Shown piece by piece: positions 2,719 to 19,905 of a stretch of DNA of 32,000 bases; positions within the stretch are counted from its first letter, which is position 1; each line of letters starts with the position of its first letter. The notes below the pieces were generated by a model that was not told the DNA's origin, made no database searches, and saw only the letters and a list, made by a program, of their open reading frames with translations. The translations under genes were made by a program, and so were the position numbers. Location of the stretch: positions 44,602 to 76,601 of the forward strand of contig JAJRZD010000019.1 of assembly GCA_024275415.1 (NCBI GenBank), in the 5' to 3' direction. This stretch comes from an archaeon (GTDB lineage Archaea > Asgardarchaeota > Thorarchaeia > Thorarchaeales > Thorarchaeaceae).

Positions 2719-4020
2719 ATGGGAACTGATGTACCTTGGTCGGAACTTCCTGACGGCTTTGAGTTCGGAATTGTCGAAACTGATGAAGAACTCGATGAGT
2801 TAGTCAGATTCAATAACGAAATTCACGGCCCTGAAGCAGGAGGGATGCTTCGACGACTCGTCAATCACCTGCCTGATTTCAATCGGCAAATGAACTATTT
2901 CATTCGGGATGTGGAATCTGGAAAGACAATCTCAGCTATCAGTGCCATCCCAAGTGTCTGGTCATACGGTGGGATTCCCTTACGGAACTTGGAGCTCGGA
3001 TTCGTTGGCACTCGTGAGTCATACCGAACTAGGGGAATGTTCGCATTCCTTTACAGGTTCTTCGAACATCAGCTGGAAACAGGCTACTATGATATTGCTA
3101 CGATTCAAGGTATCCCTTATTTCTATAGAAAATATGGCTACGAATTCATCTTGCCACTCGGGCGGTTCATAACAATACTCCCTTCTGCAATTCCTCACAT
3201 CTCCACTGAGGATGTACCGCCCTATATGGGAATCCGGGTTCGTCCTGCATCATCTGCGGACATCTCTGCTTTGATGGGACTATTTTCCGAGATGCAGTCA
3301 CGGCTCCTGATTACATCAGCGCGCGATGTGCGACTTTGGCAAGCACAGGAACTGACTAGGATGCATGAGGACAGACTAGTAGAAACTTTCGTCCTAGAAA
3401 GAAATGACGTGATTGATGGCTATTTCCGTATCAATGAAGCCAAGGATTCTGATGCTGAATCCGTACAATCAATCAGAGTGAGTGAATCAAGCATCAAGTC
3501 TTACGATTCTGTCATGCGAACACTTCAATTCCTCAAGAGTAGAGCCACGGATTCCAATGCTTCTGCTATCGAAATCGCTGGTGATACGACATCGAACCTT
3601 GGAAAGATAGCGATGGATTATGGTGGACTTGTGAACCGAGGCTGGAAATATCAGGTGAAGATTCCGAACGTGGTGAGCTTTATCCAGAAGATATGCCCCG
3701 TCCTGGACAAGCGATTGAAGGCATCAATGTTCAGCGAACTAACACGAGATGTTTTCATCAATACCTACAACAACTGCTACCAGATCAGTATTGAAAAGGG
3801 GAACGTGAAACACATAGCCGACATCGGGATGCAGCCGGTAGACGCATATACGAACATAAGAATCCCGCCACAGGCATTCCTCCATTTGCTCCTTGGGGAT
3901 GCCTCGATAGAAGAACTTCATGACCGACAGATGGATTTTCTAATCCGGCCGGGAGAAAAGACTCTGCTTGAGATACTATTCCCCAAGATGGCGAGCTACA
4001 TATCCTACTACCATGTCTAA
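2719..4020 (+). CDS. Eis-like GNAT acetyltransferase with C-terminal SCP2-like domain
   Basis: GNAT acetyl-CoA motif (VGTRESYRTRGMF), IQGIPYFYRKYGYEF; ORF is open from 2671, ATG at 2719 preferred. Confidence 0.75.
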   Translation: MGTDVPWSELPDGFEFGIVETDEELDELVRFNNEIHGPEAGGMLRRLVNHLPDFNRQMNYFIRDVESGKTISAISAIPSVWSYGGIPLRNLELGFVGTRESYRTRGMFAFLYRFFEHQLETGYYDIATIQGIPYFYRKYGYEFILPLGRFITILPSAIPHISTEDVPPYMGIRVRPASSADISALMGLFSEMQSRLLITSARDVRLWQAQELTRMHEDRLVETFVLERNDVIDGYFRINEAKDSDAESVQSIRVSESSIKSYDSVMRTLQFLKSRATDSNASAIEIAGDTTSNLGKIAMDYGGLVNRGWKYQVKIPNVVSFIQKICPVLDKRLKASMFSELTRDVFINTYNNCYQISIEKGNVKHIADIGMQPVDAYTNIRIPPQAFLHLLLGDASIEELHDRQMDFLIRPGEKTLLEILFPKMASYISYYHV

Positions 4021-4057
4021 GGGGCTTTCCCTCTCGCTAGGCGGGTTCTTTTCCTTC

Positions 4058-4432
4058 TCAATCCAAGTCCGGGATATTGATTTCCACTGCAAAATCGGCT
4101 CCGCATGGGCATCTTGCATTGATGGGGTATTTGTCCGGCGTATCAATGGAGATAGAGGCGCCTTGAAGTGCAGCCTTGTCAATCATAGTTTGCATGTTGT
4201 GAACCATGTACTTGGCAAACCCGACGACCACATCGGGAATCTAGATATCGTTTATCCAGAATACATAATGACTACATTCAGGATTCGGACATGATGACAG
4301 TAGTACTTTTGTCCCGTCACCACACGACCCACATTTCAGATCTGTATGGTGGTAGTCAGGGGCATCCGGTGCTGGGAGAGAAAGTCGATTCTCTGCCCCG
4401 CATCGATAGCAGTAATAAACGAACTCAACCAT
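4058..4432 (-). CDS. Double zinc-ribbon protein (124 codons) with one in-frame TAG at 4241-4243
   Basis: CYRC, CGSC and CPNPEC precede the TAG; the frame stays open for 60 more codons (IPDVVVGFAKYMVHNMQ...ARCPCGADFAVEINIPDLD) to TGA at 4058, supplying the fourth Cys pair. Confidence 0.7.
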
Positions 4433-6367: not shown

Positions 6368-7615
6368 TTGATGAACATGGAGGTCGTCAGCGAAGTGGAC
6401 TATGATGTCATTGTGGTAGGGGCAGGCCCAGCTGGTTCGATTGCATCATATGAACTAGCCAGAGCAGGGATCAGGATCGCACTATTGGAGAAATTCACCA
6501 TTCCTCGCGATAAGCCATGTGGAGGGGCAGTCATGGCCCGTGGGCTTCACATAGTCCGTGGGAAGATTCCCAAACGCATCGTAGAACAGATGATCCATGG
6601 CCTCCGTTTTGTACTACCCGATGGAAAGGAGGCACAATTCAAATCAGACCGACTGATTGGCATCACTGTATTCAGGAGCCTGTTCGATGAATTCTTGGCG
6701 AAGCGAGCCGAAGCTGCCGGTGCTGAACTCCATGAGAACGCCCGAGTTGTTTTGGCATCCACCTCCGAACATCATGCACAGGTCAAACTAAGGAACGGTG
6801 ACCAACTCGAAGCAAAATTCCTAATTGGCGCTGATGGCGTGAACTCAATTGTAAGCCGATCCCTTGGGCTCAGGCCGAAGCGAAAAAACCCTTTCAGAAT
6901 CGGACTGGGCATGGAGGCAGATTTCCATGTGGGGCATGAAGGTGTTATGGAAGCAACTCGAGGCGATCCGTCCATCCTTGAGATTATTCCCGTCGATGGG
7001 AGAATCAGTTATGGATGGATGTTCCCGAAGAAAGAACACTTGGCTATTGGTATCGCGGGTGCCAGCGTACATATGCATCCCCTGCGTCCAATTTTCGAGT
7101 CATTCAGGAAGAAGTTAGAGGCTCGCATTGGTATCGACCTGAAGACCGACAAGAAACGTACCTACTTCCTTGGCGGTGATGGCATTCTGGGAAAGAACTA
7201 TACTCGACGCGCGTTGCTAGTGGGTGATGCAGCAGGGTTTGTGGATCCCATGATGGGGGAGGGAATTGCTTATGCGATGAGATCAGGTCAGCTTGCAGCC
7301 GCAGTGATAAAGAGATGTCTTGACCAAGACCTCTATCTGGAGAAGCACCTTATTGAGTATCAGGCTTTATGTCATGATGAGTTTGCAGCCAATTTCGCCA
7401 TGGCGGAACGGGCCGCCCTCAAGGGTACTTCATTTGCTGAATCCGTACTTATCCATGCACAGGCACTCAAGATGTCCTCTGAATTGTTAGCAGCACTTGC
7501 CCGAGGCGAAATTGGTTATTCCGACATCCCTGCGCTGGTAGTGCGAAACCTTCCACGTGAGATTCCACGATTTGTCCGGACAACTATCCAGTCCCGTATC
7601 TTGAAGAAGCAATAA
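6368..7615 (+). CDS. Geranylgeranyl reductase family FAD-dependent oxidoreductase
   Basis: DVIVVGAGPAGS, KPCGGA, SYGWMFP, LVGDAAGFVDPMMGEGI. Confidence 0.88.
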   Translation: MMNMEVVSEVDYDVIVVGAGPAGSIASYELARAGIRIALLEKFTIPRDKPCGGAVMARGLHIVRGKIPKRIVEQMIHGLRFVLPDGKEAQFKSDRLIGITVFRSLFDEFLAKRAEAAGAELHENARVVLASTSEHHAQVKLRNGDQLEAKFLIGADGVNSIVSRSLGLRPKRKNPFRIGLGMEADFHVGHEGVMEATRGDPSILEIIPVDGRISYGWMFPKKEHLAIGIAGASVHMHPLRPIFESFRKKLEARIGIDLKTDKKRTYFLGGDGILGKNYTRRALLVGDAAGFVDPMMGEGIAYAMRSGQLAAAVIKRCLDQDLYLEKHLIEYQALCHDEFAANFAMAERAALKGTSFAESVLIHAQALKMSSELLAALARGEIGYSDIPALVVRNLPREIPRFVRTTIQSRILKKQ

Positions 7616-12823: not shown

Positions 12824-15419
12824 CGGGTGCATGAGTAAATTTGCTATTTGCTGTATGACTGTTGGTGGATGGCTTGGTTGGCAAACCGATGAAGGGCGTG
12901 ACAAGCAGCGATATTCCCTGGGTAGGCGCATGAAGCCTTTGATCCGGGGGTGCCCGAATGGGACTTCCTCGCATGGGTTAATACCCCATGTGGCTCCAGT
13001 GTCGCAGCTGGAGTGGGAACGCTCCGAACTGAAGCATCTTAGTAAGAGCAGGAAAAGAAAACAATAGTGATTCCCCTAGTAACAGCGAGCGAACGGGGAA
13101 CAGGCCAAACCGAATCCCATTGCGAAGAGTGATGGGAGATGTGGTGTGTGGGCACGGGATCTATCGCCGACGGACCTAAGACGAAGTCCTCTGGAACGAG
13201 GCGGCGGAGAGGGTGAAACCCCCGTAGTCGTAAAGTCCGGGCGTTTCCTGTGTTCCCGAGTAGCGCGGGTTGGTCTTCTCGCGTGAACGTCCCAGTCGCA
13301 ATCTGGGAAGCCTAAATATTATGCCAATCCGATAGCAAACTAGTAGCGCGAGCGAAAGTTGAAAAGAGCCGCGGAAGCGGGGTGAAAAGCACCTGAAACC
13401 AACAGTCTAAACAAAGGATGCTGATTAAAAGAGTAGACTCTCGGCGAACGAAAACGGAGTGATCCGTGTGTAGGAGCCGAGACGATCGGATTAGCATCAT
13501 CCGTCTTGAAACACGGGCCAGGGAGTTCACGGACGTGGCGAGATTAAGACATGAAGTCGTAAGCGAAGGGAAACCGACAAGCCCGCAGCCTTCGGGTGAG
13601 GGGCGAGGTGTGATAAGTGCCTGTAGTCACAGCCGTGACACGAGAAACCAGTCGATCTTGGCGTGGGCAGGGTGAAGCCGGGCGAAAGCTCGGTGGAGGC
13701 CCGAAAGGGTTCTGACGTGCAACTCGTTCCGTTGACCTGCGCGAAGGGGTAAAAGGCTTATCTAGACTGGTGATTGCTCGTTCTCCGCGAAGTTGGTCGT
13801 AGCCAAGCCCCACTCGAGGTATCATGTGGTGTAGAGCACTTTTGGAAGCGCCCGGGGGACGTCAAGTCCTTCACCTTCCCGAAAACTCCGAAGCTGCATG
13901 AACTGTAGACGGTGGGAGACGGGTGCCCGGGGTAAGCCCGGCAGGCCGAGATGGGGAGAACCGAGAGTATGGTTAAGGTCCCTAAGTGCCGGATAAGTGC
14001 GGTGAAGAAGGGAGTCGAGAGCCCAAGACAGTCTGGGGGTGAGCTTAGAGGCAGCTATCCCCGAACGAAAGCGTAACAGCTCACAGACCGAGGCTCTCGG
14101 CCTTGAAAATGGACGGGGCTCAATCCGGCCACCGAGACCATACAGCACACGAGTACCATCGTGTGATCTGGTAGCGGAGCGATCTGGTAGGGTAGAAGTG
14201 GGGCCGTGAGGTCCCGTGGACCTGCCAGATTTGATGATCCTGGCGGTAGTAACAGCGTAGCATGGTGAGAATCCATGTCACCGAAAGGGAAAGGGTTCTT
14301 CGGCGATGCGTCATCAGCCGAAGCTTAGTCGGTCCTAAGTGGCGTCGTAACTCGAGCGTCACGAAAGGGAATCAGGTTAATATTCCTGAACCTCGGAGAT
14401 ACATTTCACGGTAACGTAAAGCCGGGTCTGTGACTCATCTGGACAGGCCAAACGCAGCTCTCGCTGTGTTTAACACTATAAGCCTACCGAGTACCGTAAT
14501 GGTGAGAAGTAGGTGAAGGGTGGAATAGCGGGTGGTCGGACACCCGTTTGGCTCATTCCTGGTGACCTTGAAAAACAGATCCGGAAGGATTCTCCGAGTC
14601 CGTACCCAGAACTGACACAGGTTCCCTGGCTGAGAAGGCCAAGGTGTATCCGGGTCACTCCTCCTGAGGGAAATCGGCCAATTAGCGGCGTAACTTCGGG
14701 ATATGCCGTGCCTGGGTTAGTGCAAGCTTTCCTAGGTCTTAGTAACTCAGGGGTCCCAACTGTTTAATACAAACATAGCTGACTGCGAGCGGGAAACCGT
14801 TAGTACAGTCAGTGAATCCTGGTCTGTGCCTGTCTGTTAAAACTCAGAAATGGGTCGAAGCACAGGTTAACGCCGGGACTAACTATGAGTCTCTTAAGGT
14901 AGCCAAATGCCTTGTCGGTTAAATGCCGACGTGCATGAAGGGAGCAATGAGGTCCCCACTGTCCCCAGGAGGAACCGGGTGAACCCACACCATACCGAAC
15001 AGTGTATGTACGCCCAATGGGAAGAGAAGTCACTGCGGAGGTTTACTACGCAGTCTGTCGTTGCCATTTCTGATATCATACAGAGTATAGTCAGGAGCGA
15101 CGAAGCACGTTCTCCGGGACGTGTGGATGCGACCGTGTAATACTGACTATGGTATTGGGGATGGCTAACCTAGACCAAGCGAGTCTAGGGACACCGGCAG
15201 ATAGGCAGTTGGGCTGGGGCGGCACAGGGCTGACAAGAGATCAGCCCTGACCAATGGTGGACTCAGAGGCGACGGAAACGTCTCGTCGAGATCAAGGGCA
15301 TAAGTCCGCCTGACAGGATCCCTAACAGCAACGGATCCTGGGACGAAAGTCTGGCCTAGCGAACGTTTACATGCCAATTGTAGGGCGGTAGACATGACAA
15401 AAAACTTACCCCAGGGGTA

Positions 15420-16210
15420 ATCTCTAGCCGGTCGTCAAAAGGCGAGGATAATAAATACATCATTGCCATTTAATGAGTGGAAAAAAATGGAACGTTGGGA
15501 CATATCAGATGATGAAGACTTTGAGAAGGAGAATCTGGATAGACCAGAAACTCTGGTTCGAAGGTACATTGAACAGTTGTTCAAGGGTACAGATCGCATC
15601 ACTGAAACAATGTTAGCCAGCGTAAACATAGCCTATCTCGCAGGCATTACTGAAGATGCCCACCTTGGCCAAGGTGGAAAAGAAGGATATGTCTTTGACA
15701 TCGAGTCTAAATCAGAACGATGGCTCACTGACTTAATTATGCCTGCACTCAGACTTGAGATTCCTGAAAAGGAAATTAGAGTCAAACGACGTGGTACCAG
15801 ACCTGAGTATCGTATTCAGGTATGGGACAAAAAACTCGTTGAAACCCTTCGAGTATTATTCGAAAGACCTGGAATAGTCCGTCTGTGGAGTATTCGAAAT
15901 CAACGAGCGTGGGTGCGTGGTTTTGCTGATGCTGAAGGATCAGCAACTCGTAACACGGACAAACAACCACAATTTAGTTTCTACAACCAAAACTTGGAGA
16001 AACTTAAGATAGCAGGCGAAATCCTTGAAAAAGATGGAATCCACTTTGGCTTCTACCTACCAAATGGTAGAGATGTGTGGCAAATGTATCTAACAGGACG
16101 CGAGAATCTAAAACGTTTCCTTGATGGGGAAGCTTCTGGGGTGAGCCATCCTGAGAAACGTTCACGCTTACTTCAATTCCTTGCTGAGTAGCGCCGACTA
16201 GGGACCCTAA
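15420..16210 (+). mobile_element. Archaeal BHB-type rRNA intron (791 nt) in the peptidyl-transferase centre
   Basis: Interrupts CCAGGGGTA|ACAGAGTCGTC; GGGG:CCCT 4-bp helix flanked by TAA and AAA 3-nt bulges; intron stem TCTCTAG:CTAGGGA; AT-richer than the flanking rRNA. Confidence 0.9.
15463..16191 (+). CDS. Intron-encoded double-motif LAGLIDADG homing endonuclease
   Basis: Motif 1 AYLAGITEDAHLG, motif 2 AWVRGFADAEGSA, followed by FSFYNQNLEKLK; start could be TTG at 15463 or a slightly later ATG (MERW). Confidence 0.88.
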   Translation: MPFNEWKKMERWDISDDEDFEKENLDRPETLVRRYIEQLFKGTDRITETMLASVNIAYLAGITEDAHLGQGGKEGYVFDIESKSERWLTDLIMPALRLEIPEKEIRVKRRGTRPEYRIQVWDKKLVETLRVLFERPGIVRLWSIRNQRAWVRGFADAEGSATRNTDKQPQFSFYNQNLEKLKIAGEILEKDGIHFGFYLPNGRDVWQMYLTGRENLKRFLDGEASGVSHPEKRSRLLQFLAE

Positions 16211-16493
16211 ACAGAGTCGTCGCGGGCAAGAGTTCATATCGACCCCGCGGCTTGCTTCCTCGATGTCGGCTCTTGGTATCCTGGCGTTGCATAAGGCGCC
16301 AAGGGTGCGGGTGCTCACCGATTAAAACCGAACGTGAGCTGGGTTTAGACCGTTGCGAGACAGGTTGGTTTCTATCTATTGGGCGTGTTGGTCAACTGAC
16401 GGCAAGATGTTACCGGTACGAGAGGAACGTAATGTCGCGACCAATGGTGTACCCATTGTCCGATAGGGCAGCGTGGGGTAGCTAAGTCGTAAT

Positions 16494-16526
<33 letters not shown>

Positions 16527-16724
16527 AGACCGGAAAATAGTTGACCACTTAAGTGACGGTCCTACCGAAGGAGCGCGGGGCTGGTGACAGCGACGCGTAG
16601 TCACGAAACGAGGGTTCTGCTAGAAGAGCAGGTTAATAGGGCAGGGGTGTAAGTACCGAGCTCCGGCGAGGTATTCAGCTCACTGCTACTAATACCCGAG
16701 GCAAGCGAATTCAAAGTGCATCTC

Positions 16725-16742
16725 GCACGGTACCTAGAGCTG
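16725..16742 (+). other. 3' strand of the 23S pre-rRNA BHB processing stem
   Basis: Pairs with 12806-12823; outer stems also pair (TTACAATCCTT:AAGGGTTGTAA, ACAATCGTAC:GTACGGTTGT, GATGATCG:CGATCATC). Confidence 0.8.
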
Positions 16743-17057
16743 TAAGGGTTGTAAGAAACGTACGGTTGTAAGAGCGATCATCATCTGTGGGCCATCTATT
16801 TTTGAAGGGGCCGACCGTCTGCTGAGCGGGGGCAACCGAATGTGAGGTCTATTTCCTCCTTTTTGAGTACAATTCTAGTTCACGATGGCTAATGGGTGTG
16901 TCTGGATAACACACGCACCTGAAGGTTGGGTCTTTCAGGTACCAAGATTCAAAGGGATGCCCTTGCACCACTTCAAGGACATCCCAGCCTCAAAGGCACG
17001 TATCTCACAGGTATGCGATATGTTGATTTTCATGAGAAGCCATCCCTCAAATCTTAT

Positions 17058-17086
17058 CCGTTGCGAGACAGGTTGGTTTCTATCTA
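17058..17086 (+). repeat. Exact 29-nt direct repeat of 23S rRNA 16350-16378
   Basis: CCGTTGCGAGACAGGTTGGTTTCTATCTA occurs at both positions. Confidence 0.95.
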
Positions 17087-17115
17087 AGAGTTCTTGCCTA
17101 TCTAGGAGTTCTTGG
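17080..17115 (+). repeat. Two-unit 18-bp tandem repeat
   Basis: CTATCTAAGAGTTCTTGC / CTATCTAGGAGTTCTTGG; the first 7 nt overlap the rRNA copy. Confidence 0.85.
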
Positions 17116-17266
17116 GGGGTCATCAGACTCCACTAAGGGGTACCCAAGAAGATGAACTGTTCATTGTAGGATGGACATACGGCGGTCTACCCTTGGCGCA
17201 AGGCCTACTCTGAAGGAGGTCGAAAAGGTCTGAAACTCAGACCCACGGTGCCTCACAACCCAAGGA

Positions 17267-17720
17267 TTGTCCTCACCGACGAGCTCAGACACAGGGTTCT
17301 TGCGTACAGTACTGATCCAATTAGCCCTCAAAGACGTGTTTACCAAACAGAGTCGTGAGACCGTGTTTCGAGCACTGGATGGAGACTACGAGGACCTCAG
17401 TGAAGACCAACGTGCATCCTTCGAGAGTGTGAGTGAGAGTCAGCGGATGATCATCACAGAGTTGCTCACTGAGATAGAGGGTCTGGAGAAAAGAAAGGAG
17501 AGGTACGATGCCAGGATAGTCCGGGTGATAGAGGAGTTGAAGAAGGACGGTGACAAGGACGTCAGTTTCCTGGTGACAATACCGGGAGTGGGTCTTCCCA
17601 GTGCAGCTGTGACAAAAGTAGAGATAGGTGCAGTGGACAGGTCTGCGAGTCCTGAGAAGTCGTCATTGTACACAGGACTGGCACCGAGAGTGTACCAGTC
17701 AGGGAGTGTGAACAGGAATT
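17267..17720 (+). mobile_element. IS110/IS116/IS902-family transposase remnant (coiled coil and start of the C-terminal domain only)
   Basis: LVTIPGVGLPSAAVTKVEIGAVDRSASPEKSSLYTGLAPRVYQSG matches the Transposase_20 pattern; the DEDD N-domain is absent and similarity stops just after QSG. Confidence 0.8.
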
Positions 17721-17877
17721 CCTCAAGATCCTCGCGCAGGATGTCTATCCGGTCTGAAGTCGTCAAGATTCTATGTTTCTACCTTCTTTCTGGTTTCCAT
17801 TTATTCAGTTCTCGTTTTTAAAAACAAGTCTAGTCCTTCATTTCTTACAGGTTTCATAGATCAGTACAGTTGCAGTA

Positions 17878-18129
17878 TCAGACAATCTTCTTCAGACAAT
17901 CATGCAGAGCTGGCAAATCCTCAAGTTTCCATGGTATATCTGGGTGCTTCTTTCGAAACTCTTCAGACATCCCATTGGCTGCTTCGCCAATCACCTCGAA
18001 TAGCCTGACGACTGCGTGCATTAGCATTCTGTTCTTTTCAAGGTCTCTACGACTCTTTCCGTCCGTGAATTCGATGACTTCCATAACAGCATCCAGCATA
18101 TGTCGTAGCCGCACCTCATCCTCTTGCAT
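17878..18129 (-). pseudogene. HepT/DUF86-like HEPN toxin with an in-frame deletion of the RX4-6H catalytic segment
   Basis: RLRHMLDA...AVVRLFEVIGEAA..FRKKHPDIPWK joined directly to LEDLPALHDCLKKIV; 83 aa from ATG at 18129. Confidence 0.75.
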
Positions 18130-18424
18130 CGTATTGGACCTCTGCTGTTTCAAGGATATCATCTCGGAAATACCTACTCAAGTCATTAGGCGTCCGAAGG
18201 TCTACCTGCTTCCCAAAAAGATCGCTGAGCTCATCTTGGATGTCTATCAGCTTGAAGAATCTAGGGGTTTTTCCCGACTCGAACTCGACAAGGATATCAA
18301 TATCGCTGTCCTGATCGAAATCACTTCTCAATACTGAACCAAAAAGGGACAGCTTACGAATATGATACCTCTTGCAGAGTCTTTCAATCTCATCGGTAGG
18401 AGGCACCCTGATTTGAAGTGTCAT
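18116..18424 (-). CDS. MntA-like minimal nucleotidyltransferase antitoxin
   Basis: LSLFGSVLRSDFDQDSDIDILVEF, ELSDLFGKQVDL; GGAG upstream of ATG at 18424; overlaps the HepT start. Confidence 0.88.
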   Translation of the reverse strand: MTLQIRVPPTDEIERLCKRYHIRKLSLFGSVLRSDFDQDSDIDILVEFESGKTPRFFKLIDIQDELSDLFGKQVDLRTPNDLSRYFRDDILETAEVQYDARG

Positions 18425-18499
18425 GCTCCTTTCATCCTCCGCATTTGGTTTCACACATATTGACAGGTGGTAATTCAGATAAATCCAATCATTTTCAAT

Positions 18500-19407: not shown

Positions 19408-19905
19408 ACTTAACTATTGTTTATAACACTTATATGTTACGTCATTGTCCATGTGCATTCATTTAACCGTTTATTGTAAGCTGGACAGATCAGGACACCC
19501 GAGTGTTGCCATCCCAGAAACGGCACTGGGAACGACTCTGTATGGTCAGCAACGTGTGTCGTTCGACCTTGTGTCATAGTACTGTCCGGTTGTATATGAG
19601 CACCGACTACGAAACGTCTATCTTTGTTTAGTTCTCTCACAGCTGTCGCCAACTCCAATCTTTGTTTTTTGATTGCCTACAAGTTGGTCGCAAGGATATT
19701 ATGCAATTGCCGGCATACAAGGAGGTGAATTGAAGCATGCCATTCACTCGCAATGGTTCTTGTATCATTGGAATTGTTGCCACGAGGTTCAACAGCAGGA
19801 GAATTCCCTACAAAAAACATGAATTTATCACCATGCTAGGAATTTATCCGTTCGCCAGTGAGAAAGACATAACTATGATGACTGGAATGGTAATATGCTT
19901 GTGAG

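Follow-up and report, generated by a model that had tools for sequence, protein, structure and literature searches.

The 23S rRNA gene and the variable region beyond it

We analysed a 32,000-nucleotide stretch of DNA, hereafter the window, that corresponds to positions 44602-76601 of contig C122 in a 3.5-Mb, 127-contig metagenome-assembled genome with a contamination of 4.5%. The nearest relatives of an IS110 gene fragment in the window are supplied by Thorarchaeota records, which places the genome with an Asgard archaeon. The features that matter here are listed below in coordinates of the window.

12841-16711, plus strand: 23S rRNA gene, the sole copy in the assembly and the donor of the 29-mer (Rfam LSU_rRNA_archaea, 2403 bits, full model)
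15421-16209, plus strand: intron of the 23S gene, ~789 nt, with a LAGLIDADG homing-endonuclease ORF at 15463-16191 (Pfam LAGLIDADG_3, E 6e-11)
16350-16378, plus strand: source 29-mer within the 23S gene (E. coli 2590-2618, helix 93/A2602 region)
16712-16807, plus strand: 23S 3′ trailer, 75-78% identical to the sequence directly 3′ of the 23S genes of G001 and G005
16808-17057, no strand assigned: strain-specific segment without a genome match, the left flank of the orphan copy
17058-17086, plus strand: orphan copy of the 29-mer, 100% identical, with flanks at random level relative to the 23S gene
17080-17115, plus strand: two-unit 18-bp tandem repeat (units 17080-17097 and 17098-17115, 94% identity)
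17087-17184, no strand assigned: strain-specific segment, the right flank of the orphan copy, with a C-box-like TCATCAG at ~17121-17127
17185-17309, plus strand: part of the interior of a transposase gene of IS481-like type (rve/HTH_32), roughly codons 29-83 (matches positions 29-83 of the 284-position NCBIfam profile transpos_IS481)
17290-17309, plus strand: junction of the IS481 and IS110 fragments, ~20 nt covered by both parental alignments
17290-17717, plus strand: part of the interior of an IS110-family transposase gene, roughly codons 170-312 out of 432 (matches positions 173-283 of the 343-position NCBIfam profile transpos_IS110)
18116-18454, minus strand: MntA-like nucleotidyltransferase gene of the antitoxin type, the next unit of the variable region (Pfam NTP_transf_2, E 4e-15)

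The 23S rRNA gene was the only match when the window was scanned with Rfam at curated thresholds. Its LAGLIDADG intron lies ~140 nt upstream of the 29-mer and not at the 29-mer site; the 23S gene of a genome from the same genus (G006) aligns across 15420/16210 without it. The insertion point of this intron lies at about E. coli position 2450. Downstream of the gene, the similarity of the trailer to congeners ends at about 16787-16807, ~95 nt beyond the 23S, and past this length of trailer G001, G005 and G006 each carry different genes.

In the window, the trailer gives way to a mosaic of about 1 kb (16808-17870) that contains a 29-nt piece of 23S, a 125-nt piece of IS481 and a 428-nt piece of IS110, all on the plus strand and none with element ends. 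The segment to the left of the 23S piece (16808-17057) had no meaningful match in 40 relatives, where only a marginal 20-nt match (E 0.009) was returned, and an exact 24-mer from it was absent from the JGI metagenome contigs that we scanned. Likewise, the segment to the right (17087-17184) was matched neither in the genome, nor in the IS110 relatives, nor in the JGI metagenome contigs by an exact 28-nt scan. The 125-bp IS481-like fragment is 78-79% identical to paralogues on two other contigs of the genome (C12 and C127). Transposase_20 (PF02371) is matched nowhere in the genome but in the 428-bp IS110 fragment, which shares 90% identity with positions 708-1134 of a 1529-nt contig (L023). Where the two fragments meet, at 17290-17309, their unrelated parent genes read nearly alike (CACAGGnTCCTTG..ACACAG), and the junction is an imperfect-microhomology junction.

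Further downstream, the MntA-like gene also matches NCBIfam MntA_antitoxin (E 5e-13, under the curated cut-off). A 94-aa ORF of no recognised family (17878-18162, minus strand) overlaps it, and 17878-18454 is probably a toxin-antitoxin pair within the variable region. The contig then runs on colinearly into genes that it has in common with congener G005.

The orphan 29-mer and its junctions

The sequences at 16350-16378 and 17058-17086 are identical at 29 of 29 positions, lie on the same strand and are offset by 708 nt. An earlier note on this DNA had drawn attention to this exact copy some 700 bp downstream of its source, had placed the source at about E. coli 2590-2618 and had judged a chance match negligible, and all of this was borne out. 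Alignment to the annotated E. coli rrl gene, which is the basis of the E. coli numbering used throughout, confirmed the position and showed that the segment includes A2602. By our own arithmetic, ~2e-9 exact 29-mers would be expected by chance per 32-kb window, and the 29-mer occurs exactly twice in the 3.5-Mb assembly, also when up to 3 mismatches are allowed. The only other copy in the genome is therefore the one situated 708 nt upstream on the same strand.

The orphan copy is a sharp-edged island, since its flanks match the 23S gene at 8 of 40 positions on each side, which is the random level. When the 23S gene was compared with the whole genome, it returned its self-match and the 29-mer with no further repeated piece, and the orphan 29-mer is the sole orphan rRNA piece of this genome. 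The copy has the uninterrupted (intron-less) form, as found in the resident 23S gene.

At its right edge the last 7 nt of the copy, CTATCTA, open the first unit of the 18-bp tandem repeat, as the earlier note had described. The two units are identical at 16 of 17 positions over the reported stretch, and elsewhere in the genome the 18-nt unit has a single, chance-level match with 2 mismatches. The further claim that this edge is a microhomology junction is less secure, because a later 18-bp tandem duplication could also yield the 7-nt overlap with the adjoining unit; the overlap is thus ambiguous and not a firm sign of a microhomology join. The left junction (17057/17058) has no microhomology.

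We searched for the orphan copy in related genomes. In 40 relatives, BLAST with 16712-17400 as the query returned only the 23S gene itself and the first ~95 nt of trailer, with no orphan copy, and none was found among 156 relatives that hold the 23S stretch, whose matches we interpreted as the gene itself. Neither an empty-site allele nor one with the same structure was present in the 40 relatives or in the JGI metagenome contigs (exact flank scans of 24 nt and 28 nt, 0 matches), and exact-protein look-ups of four local ORFs returned no independent assembly of the locus. We also carried out a census, over the whole genome, of exact repeats of at least 24 nt that lie on the same contig within 3 kb of each other. 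This yielded 64 repeats, nearly all of them paralogous genes or coding tandem repeats; random-level flanks were seen in only two pairs, one being the 29-mer and the other an 89-nt repeat on contig C82. Since isolated pairs are so rare, the orphan 29-mer appears to be a one-off and not the product of a frequent, active process.

Mobile-element, intron and RNA explanations

IS110 elements are RNA-guided and site-specific. The occurrence of an IS110-family transposase fragment ~200 nt downstream of the copy, in a family whose NCBIfam name likewise describes it as RNA-guided and site-specific, together with an 18-nt unit that repeats the junction sequence, could be taken to mean that the 29 nt are an old 23S target flank, left as the footprint of a bridge-RNA-guided element. 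The second CTATCTA..GAGTTCTTG unit would then belong to the left end of the element or to its guide. The earlier note had proposed a scar of this general kind, from an rRNA-targeting mobile element or an att-like duplication linked to the IS110. We regard the footprint as extremely unlikely, and the assignment of the second unit to an element end or guide as having equally little in its favour. What had been called an IS110 is a 428-bp internal gene fragment that starts ~200 nt beyond the copy and is not an element: it spans profile positions 173-283 of 343 only, it has neither a left nor a right end, and the window contains no match to the catalytic DEDD domain (PF01548). Moreover, copy and IS110 sequence do not adjoin, since the IS481-like fragment intervenes between them.

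Comparison with intact relatives gave the same answer. Other Thorarchaeota have full-length IS110 relatives (432 aa), and by comparing two insertions of one of them we defined an element of 1830 bp with a 478-nt left end. The element ends of these relatives (TAGGGTG... and ...ACGGTG) are unlike the 23S site, and their left ends are unlike 17087-17184. No similarity to window positions 16700-17290 was found in the left ends of full elements that are 76% identical, or in the 200 nt that precede the gene in L023, the relative with 90% identity. The flanks of three relatives (L025, L026 and L030) are unrelated to 23S, neither the 23S segment, with 6 mismatches tolerated, nor the 18-nt unit, with 2 tolerated, was present in any of 88 loci with relatives of the transposase (flanks of up to 3 kb included), and the flanks of the copy are unmatched in the IS110 relatives (17087-17184) and in the JGI contigs (exact 24-nt and 28-nt scans). 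Since the ends, the flanks and the 88 loci of the relatives are all negative, the copy is not the target flank of the IS110 nearby, and this reading, under which a left end would open with AGAGTTCTTG and abut 23S position 2618, is largely refuted. The likeness to bridge-RNA-guided insertion consists of a fragment of the family ~200 nt away and of the site specificity of that family, whereas here there is no intact transposase, there are no ends and the targets of the relatives are not 23S. An att-site duplication was rejected as well. The 679 nt between the two copies, which are made up of the 23S tail and 346 nt without a conserved ORF, contain no recombinase or integrase, and there is no third copy.

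The source segment does lie in an intron hotspot in this lineage, as the earlier note had stated. When 16270-16460 was used as a BLAST query on 300 genomes from the phylum, many 23S genes proved to be broken here, and we re-aligned 15 loci more sensitively. Two intron sites were found. At 16340/41 (E. coli about 2580/81), G009 and G062 carry introns of ~430 nt; at 16359/60 (E. coli about 2599/2600), which is 10 nt into the 29-mer and next to A2602, introns of ~100-300 nt are present in G219, G008, G102, G160, G081, G108 and G176. In the re-aligned relatives no intron site coincides with the edges of the 29-mer at 16349/50 or 16378/79, and the introns bear no sequence match to the flanks of the copy. 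More generally, short ORF-less introns of about 100-430 nt are found in many Asgard 23S genes (loci L120-L130), and the 23S gene of G008 has, in addition, an insert of ~28 nt at about 16332; the 23S gene of the window has none of these. A micro-exon was considered and rejected, as the breaks at the right edge in four genomes proved to be BLAST truncations, the sensitive alignment showing continuous 23S.

That relatives have introns exactly at 16359/60 raises the idea that the copy is an ectopic homing site, a second target or decoy of an endonuclease for the intron-less 16359/60 site, at which repeated cutting would have caused local deletions. The 29-mer would span about −10 to +19 of that site, and deletions abound around the copy. 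Against this, an endonuclease gene would not fit into the introns at 16359/60, whose length is 100-300 nt, and no homing endonuclease for the site was found, which speaks also against the decoy site suggested in the earlier note. The sole endonuclease intron in the 23S gene of the window lies ~140 nt upstream, and the intron sequences are unlike the flanks of the copy. Furthermore, homing of this kind would account for the consequences of the copy and not for its arrival, and we find it scarcely credible. It is very improbable indeed that the copy was templated by abundant mature rRNA, through RNA-templated break repair, or that it has been kept as a second cleavage target of a 2599/2600-site homing endonuclease and so drives local DNA turnover beside the sole 23S gene.

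Archaeal C/D-box sRNAs have a C box (RUGAUGA), a D box (CUGA) and guides of 10-12 nt that adjoin the D or D′ box. The minus strand of the copy can pair without a mismatch with 29 nt of the peptidyl-transferase centre, and a CUGAUGA lies 29 nt upstream of the antisense segment on that strand, so the locus might be thought to specify a functional RNA or a protein-binding mimic: either an antisense or C/D-box-like guide RNA, read from the minus strand and directed at helix 93, or a helix-93 decoy on the plus strand. The earlier note had raised the antisense RNA and had remarked on a C-box-like CTGATGA with non-canonical spacing. The motif is indeed on the minus strand, where the antisense stretch begins 29 nt after it. 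The complementarity to rRNA and the nearby UGAUGA are, however, where the likeness to C/D-box sRNAs ends: there is no CUGA D box 3′ of CUGAUGA, no D or D′ box and no guide adjoining a box, and the complementarity extends over 29 nt against the usual 10-12 nt of a guide. A permissive Rfam scan of 16712-17320 gave no match over the copy, only two chance-level matches (E 1.5 and 2.3) that lie 90-150 nt away, and both strands of 17030-17190 fold no better than shuffled sequence (z-scores 0.02 and 0.94). Nor is the copy conserved in any relative searched. To judge from T-runs at about 16798 and 16860, the rRNA transcript probably stops before it reaches the copy. For the 83-aa ORF that spans the copy (16885-17136), a search of 60 genomes from the family gave no homologue, and the ORF is an orphan. 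With the spacing wrong and the D box missing, a functional RNA or mimic is barely conceivable to us, and the antisense or C/D-box RNA of the earlier note fails with it. The copy, then, bears no RNA, protein or mobile-element signature.

Templated repair and other DNA-level explanations

We consider it probable that the orphan 29-mer is a neutral, non-functional scar of illegitimate recombination or template switching in decaying, strain-specific DNA. This is suggested by the exactness, common strand and proximity of the copy together with its sharp edges and random-level flanks; by the presence in the same kilobase of two internal transposase pieces that are joined through microhomology; and by a variable region that differs in each congener, with no conservation, RNA or ORF signal at the copy. 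In the mechanism that we favour, a polymerase or a free end would have copied 23S positions 16350-16378 in cis from 708 nt upstream, likely through a template switch or the capture of filler DNA in replication or break repair, and may have returned to the local sequence by pairing of CTATCTA with the 18-nt unit. Repeated illegitimate joining of this sort would have built the whole patchwork stretch. Whether expressed as a template switch or as end joining, this mechanism is one that we infer, as are the order of events and the neutrality of the outcome; the insertion event itself, the ancestral sequence and the microhomology at the junction would follow from it and have the same standing. Of the proposals in the earlier note, break-repair capture is therefore the one that the evidence favours, and the interpretation given there is partly supported overall, with break-repair capture and the intron hotspot in its favour and the IS110, att, decoy and antisense proposals against it.

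Several observations weigh against a scar of this kind and temper our confidence in it. No relative or metagenome contig with the same flanks was found, and no empty-site allele; the left junction is without microhomology and the 7-nt overlap on the right is ambiguous; such islands are rare in the genome, with one other pair within 3 kb; and the perfect identity of the copy and its origin in the conserved centre have to be accounted for by recency and proximity alone. The scar might also have arisen in two steps, by a 708-bp tandem duplication of 16350-17057 followed by a deletion, between the CTATCTA of the second copy and a CTATCTA of the 18-nt unit, that left only the first 29 nt. The 708-nt spacing on one strand would then simply be the length of the duplicated unit, CTATCTA at the right edge would suit a microhomology-mediated deletion, and the neighbouring IS fragments have clearly been trimmed by deletion. 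Absent an ancestral allele, two such steps fit as well as a single template switch. They require two events in place of one, though, no duplicated 23S tail or trailer remains in the genome, and microhomology is missing from 17057/17058, where the duplicated units would have been joined. We think this route unlikely, though well worth keeping in view, and favour a single template switch or filler capture as the most economical account, with one event.

It is very unlikely, by comparison, that a chimeric join in the assembly placed the 29-mer where it is. Assemblies often go wrong at rRNA genes, and this is a metagenome-assembled genome of 127 contigs with 4.5% contamination for which no independent assembly of the locus was retrieved. 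Yet both flanks of the 29-mer are non-rRNA, whereas a repeat-induced chimera would leave 23S on one side. It follows that k-mers spanning the junctions must exist in the reads, which makes a misassembly or sequencing artefact improbable. The contig also continues colinearly into the genes in common with G005.

Short templated insertions at breaks and template switches in replication are well documented (PMC8421209, PMC11724301). Like the orphan 29-mer, templated (filler) insertions and those made by MMBIR consist of tens of nucleotides copied exactly from nearby sequence on the same molecule, and have sharp edges at a rearranged site; microhomology is shared at neighbouring junctions and possibly, given the ambiguous 7-nt overlap, at one junction of the copy itself. 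They differ in that they have been documented mainly in yeast and human cells, whereas the present case is from an Asgard archaeon and has one junction without microhomology. A second comparison is with SPDIR, in which ectopic single strands are integrated at microhomologies (bioRxiv 10.1101/2023.11.22.568220). SPDIR, too, leaves a short, isolated patch with the sequence of a distant locus in the genome. SPDIR patches, however, anneal by microhomology at both ends, replace a similar length of resident sequence and have been shown only in a bacterium. Literature searches on templated insertions in archaea, and on orphan pieces of 23S next to insertion sequences, turned up no specific report.

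On the scar interpretation, the locus preserves in an Asgard archaeon the clean trace of a single illegitimate copying event, probably one assisted by microhomology, and so offers a data point on genome rearrangement. It lies beside the single 23S gene at a spot that is different in every congener, which would make it an ordinary event in an unusual place, and it illustrates that function need not follow from a striking exact match to the peptidyl-transferase centre. For the cell, a 29-nt direct repeat on either side of the 23S 3′ end poses a minor risk at worst; recombination between its copies would delete the tail of the gene.

Two other repeats came to our attention during this work. The 89-nt pair that emerged from the census is an exact direct repeat with unrelated flanks, at C82:4998-5086 and 7488-7576 (L131:1499-1587 and 3989-4077; G000), which brackets a 2.4-kb segment with a gene for a 558-aa TnpB/Cas12f-like protein (Pfam Cas12f1-like_TNB, E 1e-10). 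The pair might represent the long terminal direct repeats of an element, or else a target that was duplicated. Within the window, positions 19466-19620 (plus strand) belong to a dispersed repeat of ~150-180 nt with ~33 copies in the genome (for example, C30:34092-34233 and C91:8877-9056). This repeat has no Rfam match at the gathering threshold. Its copies have a sharp common 5′ edge (ACCGTTYATTGTAA...) and fall into at least two 3′ subtypes, and candidates for its nature are a MITE, an element resembling a guide RNA and a conserved leader.
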